Below, piece by piece: positions 1,035-20,000 of a DNA stretch of 20,000 nucleotides. The notes beneath the pieces are model-generated. The model had not been told where the DNA came from, did not search any database, and worked only from the letters and a program-made list of their open reading frames with translations. The DNA is taken from the sequence record DRR723986_2455, one strand, 5' to 3'. The translations under genes and the position numbers were made by a program. How positions within the stretch are numbered: the stretch's first letter is position 1; each line of letters opens with the position of its first letter.

Positions 1035-1053
1035 TGCCTGTTGCAATGGGTGT

Positions 1054-1076
1054 CTGCGGGCAGTTTATGCCCGCAG
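1054..1076. terminator. Hairpin between convergent genes, probable terminator
   Basis: CTGCGGGCA-gttta-TGCCCGCAG is a perfect 9-bp stem between the stops at 1034 (+) and 1087 (-). There is no strong U-tract. Confidence 0.6.
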
Positions 1077-1086
1077 GAGATTGAGC

Positions 1087-2736: not shown

Positions 2737-2924
2737 GGTATCTCCGATTTTTGTACCGAATGTCTAAAGTCGCTAGAGGACCATAGAGCCAGGTACAGCT
2801 CATCTCCCAAATTGGGTATGCGTTACTGGGTGGCGGCGGGAATCGGTAATATTTCTATAATTACCGGGAGCGCGCCTTACTGTTTGCCTGTTTGGGGGTG
2901 GACGTAAGTGAAATGGTGGGGCAT

Positions 2925-2946
2925 AAAAAAAGGCCTTCGCTGTGTC
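2925..2946 (-). terminator. Distal half of the tRNA-Leu intrinsic terminator, split off by the transposon insertion
   Basis: AAAAAAAGGCCTTCG here is the reverse complement of CGAAGGCCTTTT at 19952-19963. Removing the element restores the minus-strand hairpin AAAAGGCCTTCGTTG-ACA-CAGCGAAGGCC followed by a T run. Confidence 0.8.
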
Positions 2947-3090
2947 TGTAGGTAACTTCATTAATTGTCGCCTGCTTTTCATCAAAAGTTGCCACTTTCG
3001 CCGTAATTTCCGGTTCTTTGCGATGGTTATCTTCACTATTGACGACCATATTTCAGAATAAGTTGTCAGTGTTTTTATCATAAGGTGGAA
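2947..3090 (+). repeat. Transposon end distal from the tRNA, with putative TnsB-binding sites
   Basis: Terminal TGT followed by related motifs: CATTAATTGTCGC (2959-2971), CAAAAGTTGCCAC (2983-2995), AATAAGTTGTCAG (3057-3069) and a weaker CATAAGGTGGAA (3079-3090). Confidence 0.75.
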
Positions 3091-3214
3091 AATTAAAACC
3101 TTTTAAAAACAATTGGTTGGGGTTTTTGTTGCAGTTATTAGGGTTGGTTTTGCTCTAACAATCCTGTGTGCACAGCGGTATATTGAGCTAGCTCGGCGCC
3201 AAATGGAGGAGAAT

Positions 3215-3412
3215 ATGAGCACCCCGTCCCGTGAAGGAGCATCTCCTGGAGAGCTCTTTGTCGACGCGCGGCCAGTCCCGGCTAGTTCGAACACAGAATA
3301 TGACCTACGTGAGCTTATTGGCCCACAAGAGACGATTTCCAAGTGCTATGACCGCAACGCTGAGGATAAGCAATGGCTCAATGACCTGCCTGTAGGTTTG
3401 GAAGCACTGTAA
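3215..3412 (+). CDS. Small acidic protein resembling the C-terminal toxin-binding half of MazE/PemI/ChpS antitoxins, with no AbrB domain and no toxin
   Basis: A GGAGGAG RBS precedes ATG 3215 (65 aa). The motif YDLRELI...EDKQWLNDLPVGLEAL* matches the PemI/MazE tail pattern Y.L.EL....E...WL..P.G.E. Confidence 0.6.
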   Translation: MSTPSREGASPGELFVDARPVPASSNTEYDLRELIGPQETISKCYDRNAEDKQWLNDLPVGLEAL

Positions 3413-3651
3413 TTATCATGGCTATTTGCATTCTGAGGTTGGAAATGACGCATTGGCGATGCGTTTGAGTTCCGCCTCTTTTGCGCAGAAGATCGTTGAA
3501 ATAAAATTCATAGGCGTCTCAAATGACACTTAGCGGACGCCCATAACACCGAAGTCGACGGCGGTATATAAATGAGCGGGCAAGTCGGTTACCTTCGTGC
3601 ATAAGGCGCGTTTTGGCGCAATTTCTATTTAGTTGATCATTAAACCCCGTC

Positions 3652-3678
3652 TTTTAAGGCTCACGCTTTGCCTTAAAA
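3652..3678. terminator. Inverted repeat, possible terminator or protein-binding site
   Basis: TTTTAAGGC-tcacgcttt-GCCTTAAAA, 9-bp arms, between convergent genes. Confidence 0.4.
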
Positions 3679-3695
3679 TGCGCAGTTTACCTGAG

Positions 3696-3720
3696 GAAAA
3701 GAGGGCGGCACTCCGCCCCC
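3696..3720 (-). terminator. Intrinsic terminator of the 5616-3724 operon
   Basis: The minus strand reads GGGCGG-agtg-CCGCCC-TCTTTTC immediately after the stop at 3724. Confidence 0.65.
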
Positions 3721-3723
3721 TAC

Positions 3724-5025
3724 CTACCACTTGAAGCCGGGCAGAATCGATTCGGCTGCTTTGCGAAGATCGTTATTCTTGCCCGGGCCATGGGTCAGAT
3801 CATTGGCCGCGTTGCGGAAGGTCTTCACTACGTCATTGTTTTTGCCCGGGCCCTGAGTTAAGTCATTGGCCGCATTGCGGAAGGTTTTCACGACGTCGTT
3901 GTTAGGGCCAAAGTGGCGGGCAAATTCATTGCTCAGATTGTCCAGTGCCTTAACAATATCGTTGTTCGGCCCAAAGCAACCATTTTTGCCGCCCACACCG
4001 TGAGTGAAGCACTTGCTCAGTTCTCGGCTGGTAAGGCGACCACCGGTACAGGTAACAAAGGCCGTCGGCTCCCCCCCCGAACCCATCGCACACTCCATTG
4101 CAATTTGCTGCTCTGGCGTCAGGTCCAGCGACCCCATGCCATAGCAGACTGCCGTGCCGTATACTGAAATATCGCCTTGCTCGGATTCCTGCTGCATGCA
4201 ATTGACCAGGCGGGCCTGATCTTCACTGAAAGAATCCTGCGCCATGCACAAGGGATACGCCTTGTAGTTTTTTCCGTGCTGAAGATAGCAGTCACTGACC
4301 TTGGCGATGTCTCGCTGCTCCTGACTACCGCCAAGCGCGGCCAGCGTGCACAGCGCCATCTTGCCATCGTCATCCTTGGCCTCCCGGGCACATTTATAAA
4401 AGGCCCGTTCTTTTTGCCCCAGCATTTCATTAATCATACACTGTTTGAACTTGTCGTTCTGCAGCTTGCCGTTTTTCGCTCGTGAATTATTGGCACACGA
4501 CAGGGCCTCACTCTCGCGGACCAACCGCGGGGCCGTGATACTAGCGCCGGGCTGTTCAAACCGTCTGGGAATGTAGCGCGTCGTCGATGTCAAAGTTTCA
4601 GCGCCCCGGACGAAACTACCGCCTCGCGGCAAAGGCCGATACGCATGCAGCCACGGATTCGGCGGTGGGTACCCCGGGTTAAACTTGCACTGCCCAATCT
4701 GATTCGCCCCCTGATACATATTGACGGCCACCATCGCGCCCGCCCAGTCAATGAAGTAGCCGTTGTTCGGATCGATGCTCGAGAGCTGGATATACATCAT
4801 CCCTGAGGGGTCACGCCGCATGGGATTGAAGACCGGTCCAAAACCCTGTCTCTGACGAAAAAAGGTGGTTTTTTCCGATACGTAGGTCCCATTGGTCATC
4901 AAAGCTAGGCGGTCAGGCCCGCTACTATCCGCATAAGAACAGGATCCGATTTGTGGTAGCTGCGCCTGGGTAGCGGCTGATAACACTAAAAGCATTAACG
5001 ATAGCAACATCGATGGTAAGCGCAT
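3724..5025 (-). CDS. Secreted cysteine-rich protein with C-terminal 21-aa tandem repeats
   Basis: Sec signal peptide MRLPSMLLSLMLLVLSAATQA, an AGGGGAG RBS, regularly spaced Cys pairs, and NND(V/I)VK...ND..xGPG repeats. Confidence 0.8.
   Translation of the reverse strand: MRLPSMLLSLMLLVLSAATQAQLPQIGSCSYADSSGPDRLALMTNGTYVSEKTTFFRQRQGFGPVFNPMRRDPSGMMYIQLSSIDPNNGYFIDWAGAMVAVNMYQGANQIGQCKFNPGYPPPNPWLHAYRPLPRGGSFVRGAETLTSTTRYIPRRFEQPGASITAPRLVRESEALSCANNSRAKNGKLQNDKFKQCMINEMLGQKERAFYKCAREAKDDDGKMALCTLAALGGSQEQRDIAKVSDCYLQHGKNYKAYPLCMAQDSFSEDQARLVNCMQQESEQGDISVYGTAVCYGMGSLDLTPEQQIAMECAMGSGGEPTAFVTCTGGRLTSRELSKCFTHGVGGKNGCFGPNNDIVKALDNLSNEFARHFGPNNDVVKTFRNAANDLTQGPGKNNDVVKTFRNAANDLTHGPGKNNDLRKAAESILPGFKW
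3770..3972 (-). repeat. 63-nt (21-aa) intragenic tandem repeat, three full copies plus a partial
   Basis: NNDIVKALDNLSNEFARHFGP / NNDVVKTFRNAANDLTQGPGK / NNDVVKTFRNAANDLTHGPGK / NNDLRK. Copies 2 and 3 differ mostly at synonymous sites. Confidence 0.85.
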
Positions 5026-5073
5026 TTTCTTCCCCTTGTCTTTGCTTCGTTATGAGCGGCCCCTCAGCAGAGC

Positions 5074-5616
5074 CTAGCGAACCGTCACGGTAATGGCGAT
5101 GAGTTTGGATTGGTTACCGCCGAGCGCCGCGGCTTGCGATGACATTTCACCGGCAATATCAGACAACGCGGCCTTAGACTGGGTTACCATACAGACGGAA
5201 CCGTTATGGCTGACGTCCTTGCCAACGAGAATGCAGCCCTGAGTTTGGCGTGGATAGTTGCCAACATGGAGTTGCACCAACTTTCGATCGGGCACGCCCT
5301 CGAGCTGAATTCGCCAGCCCTTCTTACCATCGCGGCGAATCCACGCAGGATAGGTACCTTGCGGGATCCGGCTGATGGCAGTTTCATTGTTCTTCCATGG
5401 CAGCTCAAGCGATCGCCCGACCTCTTTGTCGTTGACCAGTATTCGCCCTATCGTGCTGTTGTCCGCGCAAGTCATATTGCGCTCAATCACTAGGTTGAAA
5501 ACCGCATCCTGCTTTGATGCCAATAGATCACTGAGTTTGTCGTCTGCTTGCGACAGATACGGTAGCGAATACAAGGCGAATAAGAGTGAGGCAAGGAAGT
5601 GGCGTGTTCTCAGCAT
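5074..5616 (-). CDS. Secreted DUF5675-like protein (L,D-transpeptidase-like His/Cys motif, putative peptidoglycan-acting enzyme)
   Basis: The likely start is ATG 5616, giving the signal peptide MLRTRHFLASLLFALYSLPYLSQA. Motifs: STIGRI...SLELPWKNN...SRIPQGTY...VPDR..VQLHVGNYPRQTQGCILVG. Confidence 0.78.
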   Translation of the reverse strand: MLRTRHFLASLLFALYSLPYLSQADDKLSDLLASKQDAVFNLVIERNMTCADNSTIGRILVNDKEVGRSLELPWKNNETAISRIPQGTYPAWIRRDGKKGWRIQLEGVPDRKLVQLHVGNYPRQTQGCILVGKDVSHNGSVCMVTQSKAALSDIAGEMSSQAAALGGNQSKLIAITVTVR

Positions 5617-6267
5617 GCTGGCCCCTGACAAGTTAGTTTCGAAGGGAGAATTGTCTATTCCCACTATCGCGAGAACGTTTGTGGAAGGTAAGTAAATATC
5701 CCTGTTTGAGGAATTCGGGGTAGCTGACAAGATTAGTCCCTTTCCCGAAAATAGTTACTACGTTTAGGTAGTAAAAACTATATATTTCAATGGGTTGTGT
5801 TTCGGTTGGCGGTGTTAGCACGACACTGTCCCTTTATTACATTGAAATTCCCTTGCTCTTGATCATATACCGGCCAATTGAGAAATCAATAATTTAACGC
5901 CAGCATAACGGTATAAGCCTAAGACTACTGAAAAAGGCTAAAACGCCGCGGTTATTGGAAAGTTTTGATTGCTCCAAGCATCTGGTAATGTGGCGCAGCG
6001 CTCGTAACGCACAACGAATCTAAACATTCTGACTGTCCGTTTATTGCCAACAGCCGACCTTCATACAAATATGACAATAGTCCAATCCTGTCGAAAATAG
6101 GGCGTTGACTGTAATCCAGCTATTTCCGGGTTTTGGTTGTGATTGGGTATGAATAGAATTTCAACCCTAGTCTGCAATTAGGCCTTATTATTGAATTAGC
6201 CCTCTTTGATTCATTTGGTTATAGTTTTTTGTCTTGGGTCCTTTTGGTGAGGGCTATTACTCATTTG

Positions 6268-6297
6268 CAGGGGCATCGACGTTAATCAATGCCCCTG
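6268..6297 (-). terminator. Hairpin just downstream of the 7282-6305 gene
   Basis: The minus strand CAGGGGCATTGAT-TAAC-GTCGATGCCCCTG forms a 13-bp stem with two G-U pairs, 7 nt after the stop codon. Confidence 0.65.
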
Positions 6298-6304
6298 ATG
6301 TCGA

Positions 6305-7282
6305 TCAAGCCTTTGGGTTTTGCATCGCCAATGTATAGCCGTACCAGCTCTCGAAGTCGCCGTCGAAGCTCCCATTGCAAGCTTGGTCTTTTACCATAGT
6401 CAAAAAGGATCGACGCTCCTTCTCTGAAGAGAGATTCAGAGCAGGCTCAACATGATTGGCAGTGACAATAAAACCAGCGCCATTAGCCTCGCAACAGTAG
6501 AGTCCCGTGTCCTCAATATCACTTACGGCCACCACTAATGCATTGTATTCCTCTGGGCCATCAGGGTCTGCCAGTTCCAAGAAAAGGGCTAAATCCTTCG
6601 TGAAAAGGGGTTCTGGGTCAGACCAATCAGTATCCCTCTGACCCGACACTGATATACCCGTACATGAAAGTCCTCGCTTTCCGGCTTGGTGGGCAAGTGT
6701 TACTGCCGCCTCGAAATTGATCTGGTGTCCGGAGTAGACTCTATCTGGATGAGGCGTGCCTGAAAGACATCCAGTGGTAGAAACTACGGTCTCAGATTTA
6801 CCTATCAATACCCTCGGGTCTGATTCGTAGTCCGGAAACATAGGAAAATCTGCATTTGTCATAGCAATCTCGCCTGACAGTTCGTCCTCAATCTCCGAAT
6901 TTCGCTCAATCAGAAGGTGCTCAATAATAAAATCACCAATGTCGTCATAGTAGTGGACTTCACCGCGAAGCAAGTCCTCGCTCTCAAGCCGTTCCACTAG
7001 GTAATTAGCAAGAGCTCGTGAATCGGGAAGGTCAGAAGGCAGATCTTTCAGGCCAGCTCTTCGAGCATCCATAAGTTGTAAATCTGGCAAGAAAAATTCA
7101 GCGCTTGAGAGGTTGTTAATAGAGGGCCGTGTATCTGCAAGATTGGCAGCATGGCTTTTGTAGCCAAACATTGCTGCGACTAGCTCTCTCGCATGGCTGG
7201 CTTTTAACTTATTTCCAGGAGCCTGTTGCGCATAAAGTTGGCGCAAGGAATCTGAACAAGATTTAGACACATCTGTAGACAT
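6305..7282 (-). CDS. Hypothetical acidic protein with a small N-terminal helical domain (LKASHARELVAAMFGY, 'glyoxalase-superfamily-associated' type)
   Basis: 325-aa ORF with a GGAG RBS. The N-terminal LK.SHA.ELVA..FGY motif is one I associate with mobile-element genes. The rest is unassigned. Confidence 0.7.
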   Translation of the reverse strand: MSTDVSKSCSDSLRQLYAQQAPGNKLKASHARELVAAMFGYKSHAANLADTRPSINNLSSAEFFLPDLQLMDARRAGLKDLPSDLPDSRALANYLVERLESEDLLRGEVHYYDDIGDFIIEHLLIERNSEIEDELSGEIAMTNADFPMFPDYESDPRVLIGKSETVVSTTGCLSGTPHPDRVYSGHQINFEAAVTLAHQAGKRGLSCTGISVSGQRDTDWSDPEPLFTKDLALFLELADPDGPEEYNALVVAVSDIEDTGLYCCEANGAGFIVTANHVEPALNLSSEKERRSFLTMVKDQACNGSFDGDFESWYGYTLAMQNPKA

Positions 7283-7512
7283 AGGATCATCTCCAAACCA
7301 ACGCTGGACTAGACGTGTAGCAGTGGGCGTTTAAACACTACACCTGCCAGCGAATTGGCAAAGGTGATGTCCTTCGTAGAGGTATTTCCGCTGTCTTTTT
7401 GGCCGCACACAACCATGGCAATCAGCTCCTGTTTTAAGCATACGGATTGCTGGGGGTTTTGCAAGCGTAGGGAAACTCCCAAGCGGGGCATCTTGCCTAC
7501 GGTATCAGTGCG
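7283..7512 (-). ncRNA. Candidate structured RNA / long 5' leader
   Basis: Several complementary segments: GTGTAG 7315-7320 with CTACAC 7338-7343; CACC-TGCCA 7341-7349 with TGGCA-aa-GGTG 7356-7366; GCAATC 7418-7423 with GATTGC 7445-7450; CGTAGG 7466-7471 with CCTACG 7496-7501; GCAAG 7461-7465 with CTTGC 7492-7496. The region runs directly into the RBS. Confidence 0.4.
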
Positions 7513-7732
7513 AAAGAGGAGAGCAGCTTAATTTGCGTGACTCCTTTTCATCGCGACAAAGTGGGTAACTGGTCGCCCTAAAAAAACGGCAGGTAGGAGA
7601 TCGTTGTCCTGGAGCTGGCTCGCCGGGTTGATCGTTTGCATGGCCTTTGGCCAAAGGGGGAGGCTTTCCATTCACTGTTTATTGGGAGTAAAGTGGGTCT
7701 AGAGTTCTTGCAGGCAGGGAAAGGATAATAGT

Positions 7733-8083
7733 GTGAAGGAATACAACCCAAACTCGTTTCTAGGGTCAGGCTACAAAAATTTAGACCTAAAATATATTTT
7801 TGACCACCTTCGGAATATAGGGATCGCAGCTGCAATTTTAATAGCAGGGGTCAACCTTGATCCGGATATGCTGAATAAAACATTTCCGAATATCAATCTT
7901 AGTCCTGGGTGGTTTTCAATGGGACTTGTCTTCTTGTCACTGGTACTGCTGAGCCTCAATTTTGCACAGCTGCTGTATATATCCGCTAAGAAAGGCACGA
8001 GGATGTCGGCTTCAATTTCCGCATTCCTGTCGCTGCCATTATATTTTCTAACTGCGCTGATCTATATGGCATACGTTTCTTGA
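7733..8083 (+). CDS. Small membrane protein, about 3 TM segments, unknown function
   Basis: 116 aa with a GTG start after AGGA. Hydrophobic stretches: IGIAAAILIAGV, WFSMGLVFLSLVLLSLNFAQLLYI, ISAFLSLPLYFLTALIYMAYV. Confidence 0.65.
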   Translation: MKEYNPNSFLGSGYKNLDLKYIFDHLRNIGIAAAILIAGVNLDPDMLNKTFPNINLSPGWFSMGLVFLSLVLLSLNFAQLLYISAKKGTRMSASISAFLSLPLYFLTALIYMAYVS

Positions 8084-8154
8084 ACTGGCATTTCCATGTG
8101 ATCTGGGATTTCAAAGCATTAATATAGCTGGTCGAGCGAAACGAGGGCTGTGTG

Positions 8155-8355
8155 ATGGAGTCGGAACGATACAAAGTAATGCTTAAGGCTGCCACGCATC
8201 TCATGGACGGCGATGAGGAGGCTGCAAAGCAATGGCTGGCTAGTCCACAGGATCTTTTTAGTGGTGCGGCCCCAGAAGTCCATGGGGAAAGTGATGTGGG
8301 CCTGCAGGAAGTGCTCCAATTAATAGGAAGATTGGAGCACGGAGTGTTCTCATGA
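8155..8355 (+). CDS. Xre/MbcA/ParS antitoxin C-terminal toxin-binding domain (DUF2384), stand-alone
   Basis: A..L.DGDEEAAKQWLASP...FSGAAP.....SDVGLQEVLQLIGRLEHGVFS* is the characteristic DUF2384 C-terminus. A GAGG RBS is present. The N-terminal HTH is absent and there is no downstream RES toxin. Confidence 0.85.
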   Translation: MESERYKVMLKAATHLMDGDEEAAKQWLASPQDLFSGAAPEVHGESDVGLQEVLQLIGRLEHGVFS

Positions 8356-8422
8356 GTTGAAGGCCGTGGCTAGTTGCTGTTAGTCCTCTTTCTCGGTCTT
8401 TGCGCTTGGTGCCAAAGAGTGT

Positions 8423-8848
8423 TCAGGTTCCTGGCTTCATATAATTTCTGGCCTCAAATATCACCCTGCTGATACTGCCTCCGCTAATAATATGTTCAGC
8501 AGGTGATTTTCCGTCTATTCCTTCGGACAGAAAAAATATTATGGCTGATTCTTGGTCATTCTTGTCTGGAAATGCGGAGATAATATCCGGTAAATGCGCT
8601 TGAATTGTCGAAATAAACTGAAATTTTGGTAAGCGGTATTCAGTGCCGTGAAGCTGGTAAACGAGAAGTCCGTTCTGCTTAATTTTCCTTATGATTTCCG
8701 CCGGAGATAGCGACAACTCACCGGCGGCCTCTTCCATCGATAATGCGCCGCCATTGTTCTGTACAAGAGTGTGAAATCTGTCAGTGCCTGTCATCAAAGC
8801 GGAGCTGATTAAATCGTCACAGTCGCCTTTTCTGTCCCTCATATCCAT
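8423..8848 (-). CDS. HTH protein resembling MbcA/ParS/Xre-like antitoxins of RES toxin-antitoxin systems
   Basis: GGALSMEEAAGELSLSPAEIIRKIKQNGLL (HTH), then YRLPKFQF...LPDII...FFLS..IDGKSP. This pattern is typical of HTH antitoxins found next to RES genes. Confidence 0.6.
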   Translation of the reverse strand: MDMRDRKGDCDDLISSALMTGTDRFHTLVQNNGGALSMEEAAGELSLSPAEIIRKIKQNGLLVYQLHGTEYRLPKFQFISTIQAHLPDIISAFPDKNDQESAIIFFLSEGIDGKSPAEHIISGGSISRVIFEARNYMKPGT

Positions 8849-9120
8849 TTTTTTCCATTGTGCAATGGCCTACTGTGTAGCAGGGCTCTCACATTCACTA
8901 AAAATGACTCGACCCGTGAAGATATAACCGCTGGACATCAAGGTTTGGCGGCGCTAATCCGCACAATTATCGCAGCGGAATTGTTGTTTTCAGAAGCTAT
9001 TTGAAAATCATGTCACAAAATAAATAACAAGAAAATGACTAAAGTAAATCGATAAATTTAAAGAACGTAGTCATGTCATAAGTCTTAAAGTTACTTTATA
9101 AAAATATCACACAGTTTGTA

Positions 9121-9189
9121 TCTATATGTTTTTAAAAGATATTTGTTGAATGTGCTGATTTTCTTCTATATGTTTTAGAAAATTATTTG
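9121..9189 (+). promoter_or_regulatory. 25-bp direct repeats in the AT-rich promoter region of the ner-like/tns operon, putative operators
   Basis: TCTATATGTTTTTAAAAGATATTTG (9121-9145) and TCTATATGTTTTAGAAAATTATTTG (9165-9189) are 21/25 identical with a 44-bp period. TTGAAT at 9146-9151 lies between them. Confidence 0.55.
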
Positions 9190-9202
9190 AAATTTTTTTC
9201 CT

Positions 9203-9448
9203 ATGGCTAATAGAGAGCGGATTAAGCAGGCATTTAGCGATAGCAACCTGTCAATTGCCGAATGGTCTCGGGAGAGGGGCTTTAGTGAAAGTTTGGTCTA
9301 TCAGGTGCTGGCGGCGAAAAAGCTCCCGAAGCGGGGGCAAAGCTACGAAATAGCCGTGGCTTTGGGGTTAGTTGACCCATCTCGGGCGAGTGTGTCCGGG
9401 AAAGTGGCCGAGTTCGAAAGAAAAATTAAGGAGGGGCTTAGCGCGTAG
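9203..9448 (+). CDS. Ner-like DNA-binding protein (BcepMu gp16-type)
   Basis: IKQAF....LSIAEWSRERGFSESLVYQVL..KK...RGQSYEIAVALGL matches the phage-associated BcepMu gp16 family pattern. It lies directly upstream of the transposase. Confidence 0.8.
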   Translation: MANRERIKQAFSDSNLSIAEWSRERGFSESLVYQVLAAKKLPKRGQSYEIAVALGLVDPSRASVSGKVAEFERKIKEGLSA

Positions 9449-9614
9449 ATAAAGAAAAACCCGAAAAACTTGCGCTTTCCGGGCTTCCCGTGAGGTAGAT
9501 ACCTCGATCTAATCAATCTCAGTATCTCTCCTCGTTCGAAACCTGTCAAGCGTCCTATTCCCTGAATCAATGATTTGGGTCGAGCCCTCTTGGCCCAAAA
9601 AAGAGGACCATGTG

Positions 9615-12212: not shown

Positions 12213-12230
12213 ATTCTAGAGGACATCAAT

Positions 12231-13310
12231 ATGATTTCTCAAAAAACACTTATCGATATTGATAAATACCATTTCGATCACGACCATTTGATCCGGGCTC
12301 GTTGGGAGCTGTCTTGTCAGATACAGTGTGGCTTGCAGCACCAATTTGCGCTAATTCTTGGCCCCTCTGGCGTGGGCAAAACGAGTTTGCTGAACTATTT
12401 CGCGAAGAAGCTAACTGAGTACAGGATGGCTCCGGAGTTCACGGAGAGAAAGTCACCTCCAATCCTGCTAAACGCTCCAGCCCGCGTGCGCGGCTCCTTT
12501 CAATGGAAGCCGTTCCTCACTGATCTTATATCCAAGCTTGGAGCCGATATGGGTGCCATTTACGACTTGGACAGACATGTCAGTGATCTGACGTTGTATG
12601 CGGCCAAGCAAGTGAGGGTTGGGTTTAAGAAGCCGCAGGTCGAAACTTTGCATGATTTAGCAGCCAGCTTGATAGACGCGCAAAAGCCATTGGCAATATT
12701 CATCGATGAAGGTCAGCACTTTAGTAATTCTGGGACTGACGATCAGCGACGTGAAGACGTCGACCGACTTAAGACATGCGTTAATGATTTTAACACTAAG
12801 TTGGTTCTGGCTGGGACCTACGAGGGAATGGGGTTAATTGACTATAGTGAGCAAGTCGCAAGGCGAAACTCGCTGATAGAATTTCCTCGCTATGGCAAAT
12901 CTGATGTTGAGCTTAAAGCTTATGCCCAATGGTATGTTTCAGTCTGCAAAAAGGTGGGGATAGATGTGCGCTTGCCGCCGCTCAATGACCCTGAATACGT
13001 ACAGCACTATACCCTAGGTGTGCCTGGAATATTCACAAGCTGGCTTCAAGACGCGGTAAGCAATAGTCTGATGTGCGAGAAGAGTTCTGTTACAGAAAAA
13101 GCTTTAATTAGCACAAGACCCCATCCCAGGAAGTTAAAAGTCGCGTACGATAAAATCAGCCAGTATGAGCAGTATAACAATATCAGCTTCGATCAACTCT
13201 GTGACTTTGATCTTATCCCTTCTCCCGGTGAGGCTAGCGATGGGGTGTCTCGGAAGAGGTCAAAGCCTGGTCGGCGTCTCCCAACACGAGATCCGATAGG
13301 GCGTAGTTAA
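12231..13310 (+). CDS. tnsC: TnsC/TniB-like AAA+ ATPase
   Basis: Walker A GPSGVGKT, Walker B IFIDEGQH, LVLAGTY, arginine finger QVARR, and a C-terminal KPGRRLPTRDPIG. It lies between the transposase and tniQ. Confidence 0.92.
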   Translation: MISQKTLIDIDKYHFDHDHLIRARWELSCQIQCGLQHQFALILGPSGVGKTSLLNYFAKKLTEYRMAPEFTERKSPPILLNAPARVRGSFQWKPFLTDLISKLGADMGAIYDLDRHVSDLTLYAAKQVRVGFKKPQVETLHDLAASLIDAQKPLAIFIDEGQHFSNSGTDDQRREDVDRLKTCVNDFNTKLVLAGTYEGMGLIDYSEQVARRNSLIEFPRYGKSDVELKAYAQWYVSVCKKVGIDVRLPPLNDPEYVQHYTLGVPGIFTSWLQDAVSNSLMCEKSSVTEKALISTRPHPRKLKVAYDKISQYEQYNNISFDQLCDFDLIPSPGEASDGVSRKRSKPGRRLPTRDPIGRS

Positions 13311-13313
13311 TCG

Positions 13314-14612
13314 ATGTCGCTCTATGCAAAGTATGGGTTCGTTTTTTGCGAACCCATAATTGAACCGGGTAGCGACGTTGAGCTAATGTCTAGCTACTTG
13401 TCCAGGTGTGCAAATGTCAATTTCACCAGCACTTCACATCTTATTGCATCATTGGAAAAAGCAATGGTGCATCGACGAGCGCGTGGAAAGAAATCAAAAC
13501 GTTCACAGGGTGATATGTACAATGTAAATGGAATTGGCCCGCTTGCCAACGATGCTGTAGACGCGTTAGCTGGTGTCGAAGACCTGAATATAGATTTTAG
13601 AAATTTGACTTTAATCAAGTGGAGGCCATGGGTCGATTTCCGATTGCATGGAGTACTTCGGCCTAACAGGATGTGGTGTGCTCAATGCTGGGCTGAAGAT
13701 ATTGACCGAGGGATTGACCCTTATATACGACTTCTCTGGTCACTTCATTCTGTCACTGCCTGCTACAAACACAAATGTTTTTTGGAAGATCGTTGCCCGA
13801 AGTGCGATTCCTTGCAGGACATCGTTACTTCGTTTCCGCGACAATGGTATTGCTTTAGGTGTGGAAACGACCTCCTATCAGATGGGCAGGATATGAAGGG
13901 CGCCGGCGACGAGGCTATGTGGAAATCCCGAGGTATCGCAAGTCTAATTGATGCGGCTATCTGTGATGAAAACCGCCTTAGTCTGCAAAACCTTGGGAAG
14001 AATTTGCTATTTGTTGCGGATAATGTGTTGGACGGGGATATGACTGAGCTGGGTGAGGTGTGTGGCAACGATCTTCTCGAGGAGGGATTTTACTCTAGCT
14101 ACAAAAGACTTCATTTTCAGCGAATTGTGGATGTCGCTTATCGGTTGCAGATCAGTCCCGATCAGCTATTGGGGCCAAATTTTGTAATAACTACGCCACA
14201 TGAATGGAGGCCGGCAGCGTCGCGTACCAAGTACCGAAAATCTCCAAGAAAAATCGATACCGTCTTGATAAGAGAGAATATCAACAAGTGCCTGAGCGCC
14301 CCCGAAGCTATAAGCCTGAAAAATTTTTGTAAAGACAATGACATGTATCCCGAGGTATTTCGAGGCCATTTTCCAAAGTCTGCGGAATTGATTCAACAGC
14401 GATATTCACGTAAGAAGAAATTTCAGCGGCTTTTCTCGCGTCTTCAACGGGCGGGGAAAATATACCAGGCATCATTTGACATGATTTCTCAAGGGAGCTG
14501 CCCAAGTGAGCGCAGCTTGAGAGAGAAAACCGATCTTAAAGCCAGTGATTTTCGGCGAGATGACGTAAAACGGCTTATCGCGCAGATACAGGAAAAGTTC
14601 GGGAAGGCTTGA
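13314..14612 (+). CDS. tniQ: TniQ/TnsD-like target-selector protein
   Basis: ELMSSYLSRCANVN and Zn-finger motifs WCAQCW, ACYKH..L..RCPKC and CFRCG. A long C-terminal extension carries HTH-like segments. Confidence 0.9.
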   Translation: MSLYAKYGFVFCEPIIEPGSDVELMSSYLSRCANVNFTSTSHLIASLEKAMVHRRARGKKSKRSQGDMYNVNGIGPLANDAVDALAGVEDLNIDFRNLTLIKWRPWVDFRLHGVLRPNRMWCAQCWAEDIDRGIDPYIRLLWSLHSVTACYKHKCFLEDRCPKCDSLQDIVTSFPRQWYCFRCGNDLLSDGQDMKGAGDEAMWKSRGIASLIDAAICDENRLSLQNLGKNLLFVADNVLDGDMTELGEVCGNDLLEEGFYSSYKRLHFQRIVDVAYRLQISPDQLLGPNFVITTPHEWRPAASRTKYRKSPRKIDTVLIRENINKCLSAPEAISLKNFCKDNDMYPEVFRGHFPKSAELIQQRYSRKKKFQRLFSRLQRAGKIYQASFDMISQGSCPSERSLREKTDLKASDFRRDDVKRLIAQIQEKFGKA

Positions 14613-15057
14613 CTGGGTAAAGGCTGGTGAGAAGTCAGGTGTAGTGATAAGCCATGACAGAGCCTAGGCTAAAAAATAATATAATCGAGCCTATCGAGTA
14701 GGTTTTAGTCTAGTCGTAAAGAGTCGCATGGCAGAGGTATAATCCTACGATCGAGAGTGCGTGATCTAAGCTAGGAAACCATTCGCATGGCGAGTAAAAT
14801 GCTCATTACGGTTGCCAAGCATCTGCTTGTTGAATTCTCTGCAAAGGGAGCTTTTGGCATTCATTGCGTTTCGTTAATCAAGGAATTCACGATATTGTAG
14901 AAGCTTCTGCGTTGTGGTCTTTCTATGTCGGAGATCGAAACGGGTCAGATTTGGTTGCTGAGAAACTTAGGTTGTCACCTTGGAGGTTTAGCTTGGTTTA
15001 GCTATAGTGGTCTGCTAAACATCCATAGAAATTTTAACGAAAACACTAGGCGAAAAA

Positions 15058-15942
15058 ATGAACCGTTTAAAGAAGAGTGTTACCGTTCAGTTTTTTTCGA
15101 TTGATGCTCATGGCCAGTTCTTTATCGACTTTGTGACAAATTTTTCCTCTAATGCCGCAGGCTCAAATAGCTCGAGAATACTAACACTACGTAAAAAGAA
15201 ATATCTCGTCAAGCTGGCCGGAGAACATGTGATATCTGGAGAAAACTGTTTCGCTATTACCGCCGTTAGAGAGAGAAATACTTGGCAAACTAAAGCGTTA
15301 AGTAATGGGAAGATTACAGGTATTTCGCCGAACCAGGGCATAGTTGGCGATCCGTATTTCTTTCTTATTGTTCCTGGGAAGCGTTTGTTACTAGGGTTTA
15401 CCTCTGGCCCTGGTGGGAGTCTGAAAAGTGTAGGCAATACTGTGTTGGATCAGTTCGGTGGAGATCGCCTTTTAAAAGTTAAATTAGACTTGATTCCTAA
15501 GGAGAAGGAGTTCTCAACTTTGAAGGAGATTCCTGCATACAGCAGCCTTCATTTCAAGATAAATTCATCGTCTTTTTCTGAAGTTGCGGATGACGCTCCT
15601 CAGCTTATCAAAGATTTGAGTGCGGCTCCTTATATAGAGAATAATATGCAATTATCTTTGGACTTGGATGTTAATAATTCCTCTCCCAATTATATGTCCA
15701 GAGAAAATGTATTGGAGATAGTTAATTATTTGTCAGAGCATGAGGGATGCACTGTGCTGAAGGTTAAAGGCGTGGGCAATAATGGCGATTTGATAAGCTT
15801 GGATTTTGGGAACGCTTTTTTGAACTACAAGACTGAAATCAGTACTCGTGCTTCTTATGTTGAGGAAGATATTTCAATAAAGGTGTTGGAGGCGGCATTT
15901 TTAGAATATTTCGAATCTAATTTTTCTCAGAAAAAAGCTTAA
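15058..15942 (+). CDS. Hypothetical protein, possible defence-associated cargo
   Basis: 294-aa AT-rich ORF with no motif I can recognise. Its 3' end overlaps the 3' end of hamB by 26 bp. Confidence 0.7.
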   Translation: MNRLKKSVTVQFFSIDAHGQFFIDFVTNFSSNAAGSNSSRILTLRKKKYLVKLAGEHVISGENCFAITAVRERNTWQTKALSNGKITGISPNQGIVGDPYFFLIVPGKRLLLGFTSGPGGSLKSVGNTVLDQFGGDRLLKVKLDLIPKEKEFSTLKEIPAYSSLHFKINSSSFSEVADDAPQLIKDLSAAPYIENNMQLSLDLDVNNSSPNYMSRENVLEIVNYLSEHEGCTVLKVKGVGNNGDLISLDFGNAFLNYKTEISTRASYVEEDISIKVLEAAFLEYFESNFSQKKA

Positions 15943-18430
15943 TGATCTCTTTTTTTGTTATTGCATGAATGTCGTTTAGGCTGCCATTGTCATAGAGGCT
16001 TAGTAGGTCTCTGGGGGTAGAAATTCTCTTTTCAGGAGCTGTTTTTGCGTCAATTTCTTTGGCGGCCTCTCTGGTTAAGCCTAAATTAATTAGGTTTATC
16101 ATTCTTTCGTCAGATGCACCAACTTCTATGAAGGCGTGAATTTTGATATTTTGTAACTCTATGCCGCCACCAATTAATATATTGTTAAGTAGGGAATAGT
16201 AGCAACGCAATGCATTGGAGAGTCTAAATCTTATGTCATTGTTAATGACTTTGATAATTTTTCTAACTGATGTATTTACACTATCAGGCTTGCGCCCCTC
16301 TTCCTTTGCTCGTTTTTCATCATAGTCTATTTGCTCCGCTATGATTTCCTTAAGGCTATTCCCGTATACCCATTTTTGCGTAATAAGGCATATGTATTCC
16401 AGGCTGTATCCTTCGCTAGGTATATAAATTCCGAATTCGTATAGCTTGTCGCAGACTCTGAGCAGATTTTCGTACAATTCTTGGGATTTTGGATGAGGCA
16501 TTACCCATTTTTCGAACTGTTTTTGCCGGCCAAGAAAGTTAAATAGTTTGTTCTGCTGAATGTATCCAACAGTTGGGTTGGCTTCTAGTGTAAATGTTGC
16601 CACCTTGAGGTTGTCATGCGCTAATTTAATATTTTCGGAAAGGTGCGATTTTTCGTCTTGGCTCAGTGTTAGCTCCTCAGCTTTCATAGTATGTTCAAGA
16701 GTGTTGCTTGAAAACTCTCTTATTAACTTATTTGCGATAGTATAGTAGCGATATTGATCTTTGTCGTCGTGCAGGTATTCTCCACGCAAGGCTACTATGA
16801 TTTCGTATAGGTTTTCGTTTAGAGATTTGAAATAAGTTGGTATTTTATCTTCTGTGTCGGTTTTATCAAAATAGTCTTTGAAAGTCCAAGTGTCGGGCTC
16901 AATTAGAAATATGTTGCCTGAAAAGTGTTTTAACATTCTTCCTGCTCTACCTGTAATGTTTCTGAGGGTAACATCATCAAGTCTTTCGGAAGGGTTTCGT
17001 GATACTGGGGTGGCGGGGTTTAGCAAGAATAAATTTTTTGCAGGAAGGTTTACGCCCTCTGCTAGGGTGCTTGTGCAGGTTATATATTTAATCTGTCCAT
17101 CTTTAGCTAGATTTTCGACCATGATTCGGATGGATGAGGGGAGTGGGCCATAATGAAATGCTATTCCTTTCCTAAGGTTGTTTGCTAGGGAATAATTTTT
17201 GTGTATAAATTCTTCTACGTAGTTTGCTGCTTCTTCTAATGCAGGGTGATCGGAGAATTCATTTATTCTTTCTGCTAATTTGTTTGCGGTGTTTTCACAG
17301 TAATCTGGCCTGTTTCGGAATATTATGTTGCTGTGCCTTGAGCCGAATTTTATTGCAATGTCTTCGAGGCTTTTTCCTTTAAACCCTTTTTTTATTCTAA
17401 GTTCATTGCTGGAGTTTTTTCGAGAGATTAGTAGCTGTTGCCCTTTCGGTTCTACAGATATGACTATTTTTGCAACTGGCGAATTGCTTGTGATTTCTTT
17501 TTTGAAAGAAACATCTTTAAAAATGCTAGAGAAAGAGTTTTGATAGTTGGGGGACGGCATGCTTATGATTATCTGAGGGAAGCTGTCCTCTAGCATTTTT
17601 TCTATCGTAAGGTGAAGGAGTACGCCTCTGCTTTTGTCGGATATGTTGTGAGCTTCATCTATGAATAGATAGTCAAATTTTATGTCGCCGCGTTGCAATA
17701 TCTCGTGAAGTCTTTCTTGGGTCATTACGAAAAAGGTCTTTCCTCCAAACTCACCCTCTTTGACAATGGTGCATATTTCTAATTCTTTTTCCTGTTCTTT
17801 TTTCTTTGCCAATTCATAGATGTTTCCAGCAACTTCAGAAATAAGAGCTCTGGTCGGCACTATGATTGCTGCAAAGGCGCCATCGCTGGCTATGACTTTG
17901 TCAAGAAGGTAGTTCAATATAATATAGGTTTTTCCTGCTGATGTTGGTGCGGAGGTAATAACGTCTTGGTCAGATTGGAGGTCGCTCCAAAGTGCGAGTT
18001 GGTAATCTGTTAATGGGAAGTCAAGTTCTTCCACATGGTTGATGTGCTCCCGGAAGTCCATTTGGGCTTCGGTATAGAAGTTGTAAAAAAAATTCGTCTC
18101 GGGAAATTTTTCTTCTAAAAGGGAGATGTTTGGGAAATTTCCTAAATACGAAAAGATATTTTTCGCTATTGGAATAATCTCTGAGTGTTCGCCAGGGTAT
18201 AGATCTAGAATCATGGAAAGAATAATTGAGCCTTCTTCTTGTAGATTTTCGTCGTCTGATTTCAATAAAATTTGGGACGATAAAAGAAGCTTTCTAATCT
18301 CTTGCTTTTCTAGATTATGACTTTCTGCTGTTAATTCGCGAATATATGAGGAGAATAATTTTTTGCTTGTTTCTTTGTACGATTCGCTTTTTAAAATATG
18401 CTTTGCTAGTTTTGTAGTGAATCCACTCAC
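15917..18430 (-). CDS. hamB: Hachiman HamB, SF2 (Ski2-like) DEAH helicase
   Basis: Motifs APTSAGKT, IVPTRALISE, TQER, IDEAH, GIAFHYGPLP, CTSTLAEGVNLPA and NITGRAGR. Its GTG start overlaps the hamA stop (GTGA). Confidence 0.9.
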   Translation of the reverse strand: MSGFTTKLAKHILKSESYKETSKKLFSSYIRELTAESHNLEKQEIRKLLLSSQILLKSDDENLQEEGSIILSMILDLYPGEHSEIIPIAKNIFSYLGNFPNISLLEEKFPETNFFYNFYTEAQMDFREHINHVEELDFPLTDYQLALWSDLQSDQDVITSAPTSAGKTYIILNYLLDKVIASDGAFAAIIVPTRALISEVAGNIYELAKKKEQEKELEICTIVKEGEFGGKTFFVMTQERLHEILQRGDIKFDYLFIDEAHNISDKSRGVLLHLTIEKMLEDSFPQIIISMPSPNYQNSFSSIFKDVSFKKEITSNSPVAKIVISVEPKGQQLLISRKNSSNELRIKKGFKGKSLEDIAIKFGSRHSNIIFRNRPDYCENTANKLAERINEFSDHPALEEAANYVEEFIHKNYSLANNLRKGIAFHYGPLPSSIRIMVENLAKDGQIKYITCTSTLAEGVNLPAKNLFLLNPATPVSRNPSERLDDVTLRNITGRAGRMLKHFSGNIFLIEPDTWTFKDYFDKTDTEDKIPTYFKSLNENLYEIIVALRGEYLHDDKDQYRYYTIANKLIREFSSNTLEHTMKAEELTLSQDEKSHLSENIKLAHDNLKVATFTLEANPTVGYIQQNKLFNFLGRQKQFEKWVMPHPKSQELYENLLRVCDKLYEFGIYIPSEGYSLEYICLITQKWVYGNSLKEIIAEQIDYDEKRAKEEGRKPDSVNTSVRKIIKVINNDIRFRLSNALRCYYSLLNNILIGGGIELQNIKIHAFIEVGASDERMINLINLGLTREAAKEIDAKTAPEKRISTPRDLLSLYDNGSLNDIHAITKKEIIKLFSEKN

Positions 18431-19329
18431 GCCTTTATCCCCATGGATTTAATAAATTGGTCAACTAAGTCATCAATGCATGAGAATGGAAGCAATAAAA
18501 GTGCAGTTTCATCGATATTGCTGTGTGTCTTTTCGAGTTCGTTGTAGAAGGTCTCGATATGTCCTTGGGCGAGTTTAGTGTATTCGTCGATGAAGTCGGC
18601 CTCTGAAGAGGATTTTGATATTATTTCCGGGCTGGCGAATCCTATGAAGCATGGGGAGTGAATAGTGTCGGCTACTTCGTAGTCTGAAAATGGGTTTAAA
18701 ATTTCAAGGAGTTGCGTCTCAATGTCTTCGTTAATGCCTGGAAAATCCATATGAGAGTCTAATAGGTCGAATTCTTCTTCATATTTTATCTTCGCGCTTG
18801 AAATGGATGCGGCGGCTTTCTTTGCGGCTGGGTTGAACTTTTTGTGCAGTTTCGATTCCCCTAGATACAGTCTGAATTTGTTATTATAGAACTGGCCATG
18901 AACGGCATCAGCTCCGAAGACAGGCATTTTGCGGTTAGTTTTTAATGATATTTTGCTTAGGATTTTTGGGGCGTTGAAGTATATTTCAAGAAGGGTGAAT
19001 AGAATTAGTTCGCCAAGCTCACCTTTTGCAGTGTGTTTGCTAAGCTTTCTTAGTACTTTGTTGAAAATCTCTTCAGGAATGTTGGCGTCATTGTTTAAGC
19101 CTAATTTTTTTTCTATTTCAGAGCATGATAGTACAAAGTTGGCGAGTATGCCGTTTTTGAGGGCCTGGAAGAGTTCTACGTAACAACTTTTTCCATCTGC
19201 TATTGGAAGGTAAACTAGTAGTGTATCGACGTTTCTCCCATCTTCTAGCTCAAAGGATGTTTTTACTTCCTTGAGAATATTGCGAATTTCTTCCGAATTT
19301 TCCAGCTGGGTTTTTAGCTTAAAGTCCAT
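18427..19329 (-). CDS. hamA: Hachiman HamA nuclease (DUF1837)
   Basis: GELGELILF, APKILSKISLKT, GADAVH and LYLGESKLH form the DUF1837 PD-(D/E)xK pattern. It is translationally coupled to the helicase gene. Confidence 0.9.
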   Translation of the reverse strand: MDFKLKTQLENSEEIRNILKEVKTSFELEDGRNVDTLLVYLPIADGKSCYVELFQALKNGILANFVLSCSEIEKKLGLNNDANIPEEIFNKVLRKLSKHTAKGELGELILFTLLEIYFNAPKILSKISLKTNRKMPVFGADAVHGQFYNNKFRLYLGESKLHKKFNPAAKKAAASISSAKIKYEEEFDLLDSHMDFPGINEDIETQLLEILNPFSDYEVADTIHSPCFIGFASPEIISKSSSEADFIDEYTKLAQGHIETFYNELEKTHSNIDETALLLLPFSCIDDLVDQFIKSMGIKA

Positions 19330-19865
19330 TTATAGTTTCCTGGCAGGGAGTTGTTTTCGATACGCCCTTGCGAATTCATCGCCGCCCTTAGCTGAGCATC
19401 TGAATAATTTAGATCGTTACATGCAAGTTGCGCAACATCTTTCGATAAGATGGGCTATTGTCCGTTTGCGCAGTAAATCAAGTTAAATAGCTATCTCCTG
19501 TGCTCGCCCGTCCGGAAGGCTGTGTTATTTGTATAGATTTTTCAGAAGCGCAATAGATGATTTGGGCTTGGTGGGTAGTAGCTGGGTAGAATTTTAGTAA
19601 GTTTAGCTGGTTAGCGGATGGTTTCAGCAGCAAGATCCAGGTGATTTCGCGGGGAGCGGATGGACTTCGGAAGTTTTAGAGCTGCTGGTAAAAAAAGTTC
19701 GGGCTCACTTAGGGGGTATTCGCTGGGGTTGATGGGGGGCGTCCCTTTTATGCTTGTGTTGCGCAGCTCAGATTTCTTAGTGCGTTGATATATAAGGACT
19801 TTATAAGATATTTTGGGGTTTGGTGTTACGAAAGATCGTCTCGTAATTGGGGGGGAGCTGAATGT

Positions 19866-19945
19866 TGCTGTGTTAAGCAAAACCTGTCGCATGCAGGTTT
19901 TAAGCATAACGTGTCGTTTTGCGACAACTTATGAGTTGGCCGACA
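19866..19945 (-). repeat. tRNA-proximal transposon end with putative TnsB-binding sites
   Basis: Terminal ...GCGACAACTTATGAGTTGGCCGACA. Inner direct repeats TTAAGCAAAACCTGTCG (19873-19889) and TTAAGCATAACGTGTCG (19900-19916) match at 15/17. Confidence 0.75.
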
Positions 19946-19970
19946 TGTCAACGAAGGCCTTTTCAAAATA

Positions 19971-20000
19971 TGGTGCCCAGGAGAGGACTTGAACCTCCAC
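19971..20000 (-). tRNA. 3' end of tRNA-Leu (probably CAG; the anticodon is outside the window)
   Basis: The reverse complement GTGGAGGTTCAAGTCCTCTCCTGGGCACCA contains a T-arm (GGAGG-TTCAAGT-CCTCT), acceptor strand CCTGGGC, discriminator A and CCA. It resembles gammaproteobacterial tRNA-Leu(CAG). Confidence 0.85.

Follow-up and report, generated by a model that had tools for sequence, protein, structure and literature searches.

The stretch of DNA from sequence record DRR723986_2455 (20,000 nucleotides, hereafter called the window) raises the question of what kind of element lies beside the tRNA gene at its right edge and how that element chose its site. The window was found to contain a chromosomal left flank at 1-2946 (G+C 0.55), an insert of 16,999 bp at 2947-19945 (G+C 0.45) and 55 nt of flanking DNA at the right edge. 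With a probability of about 0.88, as judged from sequence comparison, the insert is a complete Tn7-like transposon of the cut-and-paste kind, probably functional, that belongs to the fused-TnsAB, tRNA-targeting subfamily and is carried by a Spongiibacteraceae-like marine gammaproteobacterium. An earlier note on this DNA had claimed a complete Tn7-like transposon with two ends and no CRISPR system, and the claim was borne out. A tnsAB-tnsC-tniQ operon was found between TGT/ACA tips with arrays of sites at 2947 and 19945, and neither a CRISPR array nor cas genes were found in the window by Tandem Repeats Finder, Pfam, NCBIfam and PADLOC, so the element was not classed as a CRISPR-associated transposon (CAST). 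The element fits the gene-based definition of Tn7-like transposons and most hallmarks of the subfamily, and it differs in host, tree position, duplication length and spacing from the tRNA. The new observations are a separate branch in the tree, 4-bp duplications, a spacing of 24-25 nt and an end with sites in mixed orientation that always faces the target.

The transposition genes and the ends of the element

The transposase gene tnsAB was found on the plus strand at 9570..12212 as a maximal frame of 880 aa, in which translation likely starts at GTG 9612 or ATG 9615 after an AAGAGGA ribosome-binding site, a point on which the earlier note is corrected. The top structural match of all three transposition proteins was PmcCAST (Tn7744), a type I-B2 CAST of a Peltigera membranacea cyanobiont (structures 9BW1, 8V32 and 8FCU), which likewise contains a fused TnsAB, a TnsC and a TnsD-type TniQ, matched over nearly their full lengths; 9BW1 is presented in the accessible text of a 2026 preprint as the structure of PmcCAST TnsABC. 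Residues 31-789 of the window TnsAB were found to align with PmcCAST TnsAB chain 9bw1_M (898 aa; E 3e-95), and residues 31-260 with its TnsA portion. In an alignment of seven sequences the nuclease residues E75, D122, E135 and K137 were invariant, as were the DDE residues D522, D591 and E627. The Pfam rve domain was found at residues 538-612, and TnsB chains in the PDB also aligned with the protein, while the Pfam TnsA models gave no match to the window TnsAB, which fits the divergence of the protein; in the annotation of its plasmid homologs a TnsA N- or C-terminal domain is named. The protein is thus predicted to combine a TnsA-type endonuclease (E...D...ExK) as its N-terminal domain with a DDE TnsB transposase whose triad is intact, as in Tn7-like elements, and the presence of both parts in a single polypeptide is the mark of the fused-TnsAB subfamily. 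The single tnsA-tnsB open reading frame (ORF) reported earlier is therefore a genuine fusion, given the alignment with PmcCAST TnsAB and the invariant catalytic residues.

The public gene call for the window transposase (P0004) was found to start at M118 and to contain 763 aa, thereby losing E75, and only rve is annotated in it. The annotation of fused TnsAB genes from this branch may be incomplete in databases.

The tnsC gene was found at 12231..13310 on the plus strand, encoding a protein of 359 aa with the Pfam domains AAA_22 and TniB, whose residues 37-357 match PmcCAST TnsC (8fcu_Q, E 2.8e-18), the top match; its GPSGVGKT and IFIDEGQ motifs are presumably Walker A and B. A predicted AAA+ regulator of the TnsC/TniB kind thus stands beside the transposase, as in other Tn7-like elements. 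It was followed by tniQ at 13314..14612 on the plus strand (Pfam TniQ, E 1.7e-12), whose 432-aa product matched PmcCAST TnsD best (8v32_J, residues 23-405 of 432, E 2e-23), with the Cys/His clusters in register. This TniQ-domain protein is the sole candidate target selector found and is predicted to be a large selector of the TnsD type, in which, as in the subfamily, a C-terminal part would bind DNA and the Cys/His clusters would bind zinc; a second TniQ or a TnsE-like protein was not found in the window by Pfam, NCBIfam and PADLOC. The tnsC gene and the single 432-aa tniQ are accordingly present as first noticed, and all the tns frames were found to be open and the genes tightly spaced.

The element was found to begin with TGT at 2947 and to end with ACA at 19945, as read directly from the letters. 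The terminal 26-mers, read inward, were identical at 18/26 positions, and this was the sole TGT/ACA pair around the tns genes to reach 17/26. The right-type end (2947..3090, plus strand) contained the tip TGT followed by same-orientation copies of a putative transposase site at 2954-2971, 2976-2995 and 3050-3069, and perhaps at 3073-3090, as located by a motif scan. The left-type, target-proximal end (19873..19945, minus strand) contained the terminal site at 19921-19940 (-) before the tip ACA at 19945, followed by opposite-orientation copies at 19900-19917 (+) and 19873-19890 (+) in the same scan, which gave no additional strong copy of the end motif inside the element. The ends are thus asymmetric, each with several predicted transposase-binding repeats, as in Tn7-like elements generally, and the left-type end appears to carry sites in both orientations, as in the fused-TnsAB subfamily. 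The site motif AAGCATAAC..TG.C is common to the window element and to the Allocoleopsis and Caballeronia elements described below.

A hairpin (AAAACCTG...CAGGTTTT) was found within the left-type end at 19878-19900, where it overlaps the site copies of opposite orientation. Speculatively, this hairpin could block read-through from the tRNA side, since the terminator of the tRNA is split. A 98-aa ORF at 19611-19907 (-) without a family match was found to start 38 nt inside the left-type end, at a point that overlaps a site copy, and its expression might be regulated by transposase binding.

The target site and the geometry of related elements

The last 30 nt of a tRNA gene, comprising the T-arm, the acceptor strand and CCA, were found at 19971..20000 on the minus strand, from where the gene runs past the window edge. 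No tRNA was reported in the window by ARAGORN and Rfam, because only these 30 nt lie inside it. When metagenome contigs were scanned for exact matches to 30 nt of the right flank, a single contig was recovered, L001 (121 kb), which was 100% identical to window 19948-20000 (blastn) and in which ARAGORN called a complete tRNA-Leu(CAG) at L001:3925-4011. From this contig and from synteny the gene is probably tRNA-Leu(CAG), in agreement with the target site named in the earlier note. Between the last base of the element and the 3′ A of the tRNA 25 nt were counted (19946-19970), as the note had also stated, and the insertion thus stands a short fixed distance past the tRNA with its left end tRNA-ward, as in the subfamily.

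The empty site predicted for a relative was found in the same contig. In L001, the counterpart of window 1-2942 (97.2% identity) is joined to that of 19948-20000 with 2 nt between, and the 17 kb of the insert are absent (blastn). The order in L001 was tRNA-Leu(CAG), an intact hairpin (AAAAGGCCTTCG-TTGAATCAG-CGAAGGCCTTTTTTT) and then the counterpart of the window left flank. The element therefore lies inside the loop of the tRNA terminator hairpin, and the tRNA is parted from the 3′ arm and the U-run. By comparison with L001, the 5′ arm of the split hairpin was placed at 19952..19959 on the minus strand (CGAAGGCC on the plus strand), and the 3′ arm was found at 2932..2939 on the minus strand (GGCCTTCG on the plus strand), followed on the tRNA strand by the U-run at 2925-2931.

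The element was found to be flanked by the direct repeat TGTC, with the distal copy at 2943..2946 and the tRNA-side copy at 19946..19949. The filled site, written along the tRNA strand, is TTGACA[element]GACACAG, where GACA is TGTC on the plus strand. A 5-bp repeat was not borne out, for both 5-nt readings fail (GTGTC vs ATGTC, and TGTCT vs TGTCA). When the loop was rebuilt with a 4-bp duplication, it contained 9 nt, equal to the length of the L001 loop.

In L001 the neighbourhood of the empty site contains rpsF, rlmB and rnr, and the tRNA and rnr are divergent. The RNase R of L001 was found to be 75% identical to that of Spongiibacter pelagi and 73% identical to that of a Zhongshania metagenome-assembled genome, with 49-59% for the other 78 kept loci. 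These identities and the neighbourhood place the host, as far as sequence can tell, as a Spongiibacteraceae-like marine gammaproteobacterium close to Spongiibacter and Zhongshania, which agrees with the gammaproteobacterial host thought probable before. Among 60 rnr loci scanned for tRNAs, tRNA-Leu(cag) was found in 32. A tblastn search with the three Tns proteins gave no homolog at any of 81 loci (L001 and 80 rnr loci from other species).

Three related elements, in genomes labelled here G740, G370 and G459, were delineated by eye and with a script. The G740 element (19.8 kb) was found to have its left-type end 25 nt from a non-tRNA flank ending in CTGGGCACCA, with the duplication TGAG and the operon pointing away from the left end. 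The G370 element (21.7 kb) lies 25 nt from tRNA-Phe(GAA), with the duplication GGTC and the operon again pointing away, and the G459 element (17.2 kb) 24 nt from tRNA-Met, with the duplication CTTG and the operon pointing toward the left end, as it does in the window. The Caballeronia element lies 28 nt from tRNA-Met with its operon pointing toward the left end; no right end was located for it in the 18 kb upstream of tnsAB, and it gave no duplication length. The contig of a further genome, G746 (18 kb), contained no tRNA, and the element in it was not delineated. A seed-based end-finder recovered the G740 and G370 elements, missed the window element, whose ends have no common 8-mer seed, and gave only noise on the Caballeronia, Bacillus and Gloeothece sequences.

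The left-type end was target-facing in 5/5 elements, and the operon pointed toward it in three of the five. The earlier statement that the end downstream of tniQ faces the target was correct for the window element, and the layout is not the oddity it was taken for, since G459 and Caballeronia share it and published McCAST insertions likewise have the left end beside the target; from G459 and Caballeronia, this gene order is probably the regular one. A terminal site followed by two opposite copies about 26 and 55 nt inward was also found in G740, G370 and Caballeronia, and G459 contained one opposite copy. At the right-type end, the site spacing of about 24 and 74 nt recurred in G740, G370 and G459. 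The G740 element was found to contain the tips TGT/ACA with the first 16 nt identical, followed by right-type sites at inward positions 6, 30, 103 and 135, and the G370 element the tips TGA/TCA. The right-type end of G459 lies about 0.9 kb upstream of tnsAB, unlike that of the window element. The placement of the tns module in the middle with cargo on both sides, described before, was seen in the window and likewise in G740 and G370, and is common in this branch.

Perfect 4-bp duplications were found in all four elements for which both ends are known, all of the window's branch, in which the distance from tip to tRNA was 24-25 nt; moving any tip one base either way gave no 5-bp repeat in any of the four. 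As a control, the element on an Allocoleopsis plasmid, whose ends were fixed by two copies 99.98% identical over 5,108 bp, was found to have perfect 5-bp repeats at both copies (CCTTC and ATAAA). A 5-bp duplication is stated as a rule for Tn7-like elements in the published text available, as a characteristic outside the gene-based definition; the window element and 3/3 relatives were found to have 4 bp, and the element is termed a variant because of this departure from the stated 5 bp. No report of a 4-bp duplication in Tn7-like elements was found in a full-text literature search with one phrasing.

The flank of the G740 element contained no tRNA or tmRNA according to ARAGORN and no Rfam family at the gathering threshold or at E <=1, and a reading of this flank as a decayed tRNA was dropped, no supporting fold having been found by the two programs. 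The flank carries the 10-mer of the tRNA-Leu 3′ end, CTGGGCACCA, at the same distance of 25 nt. In register with the window flank it agreed at 29/55 positions, a score reached by 3 of the 79,890 55-mers of the 40-kb region, the flank itself presumably being among these three. The true tRNA-Leu(CAG) of G740 is 99% identical to that of the window host and lies 4.1 Mb away, with its downstream hairpin intact and its site empty. The G740 insertion may thus represent the use of a site that mimics tRNA-Leu; the TniQ proteins of G740 and the window are only 25% identical.

Three further observations were made in the G740 genome. The hairpin split by the element (AAAAACCCCGCTCATTTGAGCG) recurs about 280 nt past its right end (G740:C1 ~583010, in L090) among repeated units of about 100 nt, which suggests that the landing zone belongs to a family of repeats like repetitive extragenic palindromes (REP). 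A second TniQ-family gene at G740:C1:266775-267233 (-), with a frame of 508 aa (Pfam TniQ, E 3.5e-29), probably belongs to another Tn7-like element. A long run of GATTCCC heptamers was found after the terminator of the intact tRNA-Leu(CAG) (L093, ~1610-1720).

Family placement, mechanism and rival explanations

An exhaustive search with TnsAB gave 3,307 cluster representatives at E <=1e-3 and 803 at <=1e-30, the best non-self match being 35% identical (483 bits). Among the 149 non-self matches listed, a length of 780 aa or more was found in 140, and 146 align with window residues 31-260 within their own first 80 residues. The cluster of the window TnsAB contained 2 sequences on 1 contig. A single-protein search of genome contigs with TnsAB found no relative among 247 pattern matches. 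In genomes sampled around the Spongiibacter genome, matches to TnsAB were counted at E <=1e-30, and were found in 0/401 genomes of the phylum sample, 1/401 of the class sample and 4/401 of the order sample, one of them full-length, followed by a weak match in one of the 40 genomes of the family sample, for which the threshold was 1e-20. The open TnsAB frames in independent genomes contained 861-904 aa by the count of the search tool.

Matching records numbered 52 among 72,556 plasmids, from Nostoc (23), Tolypothrix (8), Gloeothece (4), Calothrix (3), Trichormus (3), Microchaete (3), Bacillus (2), Allocoleopsis (1), Aulosira (1) and Caballeronia (1), a tally that leaves out 3 further organism names; 40 of the 52 records were listed, and gammaproteobacterial plasmids may be among the rest. 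The Bacillus cereus plasmid pBFI_1 (L101:12617-19278) was found to contain the order TniQ, fused transposase, TniB and second TniQ, with a selector flanking the operon on both sides.

A TnsAB tree was built with a quick IQ-TREE run (LG+G4) and supported by the Shimodaira-Hasegawa-like approximate likelihood ratio test (SH-aLRT), with midpoint rooting for drawing only. The tree contained 67 rows, namely the window protein, six proteins from the sampled genomes, six named plasmid proteins and 54 of the 56 representatives P0005-P0060, the two with fewer than 780 aa having been left out; the G798 frame is partial (679 aa). A split with SH-aLRT 96 separated 21 rows from 46. The 21-row branch was found to contain the window, G740, G370, G746, G459 and 16 further representatives, and the other side all four named cyanobacterial proteins together with Bacillus, Caballeronia, G798 and G428. 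The nearest group of the window (support 93) contained G740 and five further representatives. The members of known origin in the 21-row branch (5, window included) were all from gammaproteobacterial samples, and the 16 rows for which no host is assigned could alter this picture. The tree check that had been proposed for the transposase thus put the window TnsAB outside all four named cyanobacterial references, and in this quick, midpoint-rooted tree the element appears not to fall within the clade of cyanobacterial elements. The published text available describes the fused-TnsAB, tRNA-targeting group as cyanobacterial, in agreement with the earlier remark that fusions with tRNA targeting are best known from cyanobacteria.

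PmcCAST homes downstream of a tRNA gene by means of TnsABC and TnsD, as far as the consulted parts of the publications describe it, and its test target is given there as a tRNA-Val gene, whereas the window element lies at tRNA-Leu. It contains in addition a second small TniQ, a type I-B Cascade and a CRISPR array, none of which was found in the window; its host is cyanobacterial, that of the window element gammaproteobacterial; and its TnsAB is distant from that of the window (323 bits, against 483 bits for the nearest relative). McCAST (Tn7575) and CyCAST (Tn7745), both type I-D CASTs, and their CRISPR-less cyanobacterial relatives with fused TnsAB share TnsD-directed insertion past tRNA-Leu in the accessible text of Hsieh & Peters 2023 and Faure et al. 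2023. According to the published text available, TnsABC and TnsD suffice in these relatives for insertion 29+/-1 or 30-33 nt past tRNA-Leu, whereas the spacing in the window is 25 nt. In the sections available of Hsieh & Peters 2023, the left end stands beside the target in more than 99% of McCAST insertions, the left end of the fused-TnsAB family contains sites in both orientations and the duplication is 5 bp, in contrast to the 4 bp of the window element. For the McCAST mutant D106A, cointegrates are described in published work. The window element also differs from this group in containing no second TniQ and in carrying cargo between the right end and tnsAB, and it stands opposite the four named cyanobacterial references across the split given above.

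Tn7 itself resembles the window element in its TnsA and TnsB chemistry, its TnsC regulator, its TniQ/TnsD selector for a safe site past a conserved gene, its asymmetric multi-site ends and its TGT/ACA tips. Unlike the window element, Tn7 is, in part as generally known, characterised by separate TnsA and TnsB, a glmS target, a target-facing right end, a TnsE pathway and a 5-bp duplication, and the window TnsC matched Tn7 TnsC with an E of 0.27 only. The elements of G740, G370 and G459 share with the window element the order of the operon, the design of the ends, the 4-bp duplication, the spacing of 24-25 nt, multi-kb cargo and the branch of the tree. They differ from it in a TnsAB only 25-35% identical and in their targets (a tRNA-Leu-like mimic, tRNA-Phe and tRNA-Met, respectively), and the operons of G740 and G370 point away from the target-proximal end, the window's toward it.

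By homology to PmcCAST, McCAST and CyCAST, the single TnsD-type TniQ would bind the tRNA-Leu(CAG) gene in its 3′ part, namely the T-arm and the acceptor strand, and a TnsC ring recruited by it would measure a fixed distance from the bound site. TnsAB acting on the asymmetric ends would then insert the element with its tip 25 nt past the tRNA and the left-type end tRNA-ward, leaving the 4-bp duplication. The insertion landed in the loop of the terminator hairpin, and the tRNA gene itself stayed intact. The published alignments of tRNA-targeting relatives, in the part consulted, show a motif that is conserved at 40-50 bp from the left end, a distance that would fall on the T-arm of the tRNA when counted from the left end of the window element. 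Reading of the tRNA by TniQ, the sufficiency of the three proteins and present activity are likewise suggested by analogy with these systems. There is an even chance that the element belongs to a branch not yet described, sister to the fused-TnsAB transposons of cyanobacteria and largely gammaproteobacterial, with an altered transpososome geometry (a strand-transfer stagger of 4 bp in place of the 5 bp of the family, and a distance from TnsD to the insertion about 4 nt shorter), in which TnsD may read CTGGGCACCA and part of the T-arm and for which a mimic such as that of G740 would be usable.

Several findings weigh against the reading of the insert as a functional tRNA-targeting transposon of this subfamily. 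The duplication departs from the stated 5-bp rule, and the tips of G370 and G459 were placed by a TG/CA rule and a 9-nt offset from the terminal site. The body of the tRNA lies outside the window, its identity coming from L001 and synteny, and the rebuilt loop differs by 2 nt from the empty loop, between strains. G740, the closest genome-borne relative, is off a tRNA with its true tRNA-Leu(CAG) site empty, and no element was found by tblastn beside the tRNA-Leu upstream of rnr at the 80 loci from other species. The terminal inverted repeats are identical at 18/26 positions only, and no second copy or close relative signals recent movement (best non-self match 35%, cluster of 2 sequences). A rival reading, rather unlikely here, is that the insert is an immobile relic, an element once active whose ends or proteins are now defunct and which is fixed as an island with defence genes. 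The terminal repeats identical at 18/26 positions and the single copy without a near-identical relative in the searches made agree with a relic, as do flanks that differ by 2.8% from the empty-site strain, which makes the insertion possibly not recent. Against decay stand the three open tns frames with their catalytic and nucleotide-binding residues kept and the internal site copies at family spacing at both ends; moreover, imperfect terminal repeats are normal in Tn7-like ends, which counts against a relic.

The choice of target could also depend on DNA shape, a terminator hairpin or another feature, the tRNA being incidental, and the position of the window and G740 elements inside terminator-like hairpins, with G740 away from a tRNA, would agree with this. 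Such targeting is nevertheless very unlikely, because in three elements, each beside a different tRNA, the distance to the tRNA 3′ end is fixed at 25, 25 and 24 nt, the G740 flank contains the tRNA-Leu 10-mer at the same 25 nt, a terminator is to be expected at such a distance after any tRNA, and the dependence of relatives on TnsD and the tRNA gene is described in the published text available. It is highly improbable that an integrase-type island at tRNA-Leu carries a Tn7-like module, or that nested elements with other outer borders are present: tRNA genes are frequent integration sites for islands, the G+C of the cargo is mosaic and the tns operon lies mid-element, but no integrase or recombinase was found among 17 scanned ORFs of at least 81 aa, there is no duplication of the tRNA 3′ end, the borders of the segment that the empty site lacks coincide exactly with the TGT/ACA tips and their site arrays, the interior of the element has no additional strong copy of the end motif, and in G740 and G370, too, cargo flanks the tns operon on either side. 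An assembly artefact, as a chimeric contig or as the false tnsA-tnsB fusion considered in the earlier note, is barely credible. The window is apparently metagenomic, and one gene caller starts the protein at M118 (763 aa); but independent genomes contain open frames of 861-904 aa, and both junctions carry matching 4-bp repeats consistent with the empty site. The N-terminal TnsA part is present in 146 of the 149 listed non-self representatives, and fusion is therefore the norm of the family and no artefact.

Placed as a transposon of the fused-TnsAB, tRNA-homing kind, the element belongs to the stock that lies behind type I-B2 and I-D CRISPR-guided transposons, and a separate gammaproteobacterial branch would broaden the known range of that stock. 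The branch would also offer natural variation in the duplication length and in the distance measured by TnsC, both of which are quantities addressed by structural work, and the 4-bp duplication, if true, breaks a rule that has been stated for Tn7-like elements as a whole. If active, the element would provide a compact, CRISPR-free integration system of three proteins, specific for site and orientation and native to relatives of common laboratory proteobacteria; its proteins stem from a proteobacterium and may function in E. coli free of the mismatch with host factors that is suspected for some elements of cyanobacteria.

Cargo and flanking genes

The first block of cargo (3113..9448) was found to contain, besides several small ORFs, a 433-aa ORF at 3724-5025 (-), a DUF5675 ORF at 5074-5730 (-; Pfam), a 325-aa ORF at 6305-7282 (-) and an ORF at 8423-8848 (-) that is weakly similar to helix-turn-helix or excisionase proteins in library scans. 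On the other side of the tns genes a 294-aa ORF was found at 15058..15942 (+), without a match in Pfam, PADLOC or PHROGs; a look-up in the atlas gave a DUF6731/DUF4747/RexA-like lead for it (score 0.97, low recognition). The 433-, 325- and 294-aa ORFs were not explained by look-ups in Pfam, NCBIfam, PADLOC, PHROGs and the atlas, and no family is assigned to the first two. Within the 433-aa ORF a unit of 63 nt was found twice (83-85% identity, window 3770-3931), in a region whose host-like G+C (0.54) sets it apart from the remainder of the element.

The 294-aa ORF was followed by hamB at 15917..18430 (-), which matched PADLOC HamB1 (PDLC00181, E 0) over profile positions 1-834 of 836 and contained the Pfam domains DEAD and Helicase_C, and by hamA at 18427..19329 (-), which matched PADLOC HamA1 (PDLC00152, E 6e-136) and Pfam HamA (E 4e-37). 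The two genes overlap by 4 nt, and both are near full length to their profiles. The adjacent HamA (DUF1837) effector and HamB helicase are predicted to form a Hachiman defence system, a further case of defence genes travelling on Tn7-like transposons. The G+C content was found to be 0.54 at 3724-5730, as against 0.47 for the tns genes and 0.39 for the Hachiman genes. In the cargo of G370 an Rfam abiF RNA (39.1 bits, gathering score 37) was found at L092:9947-9983 (-), hinting at an abortive-infection system as cargo.

In the left flank, a lipoprotein-like gene beside the element at 1087-2736 (-) was found to contain one in-frame stop at codon 51 of 550, whereas its L001 counterpart (4246-5895) is an open ORF. 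A frameshift was ruled out, the sole indel relative to L001 being 3 nt and intergenic, and the flank gene is either a pseudogene or carries a sequencing error.

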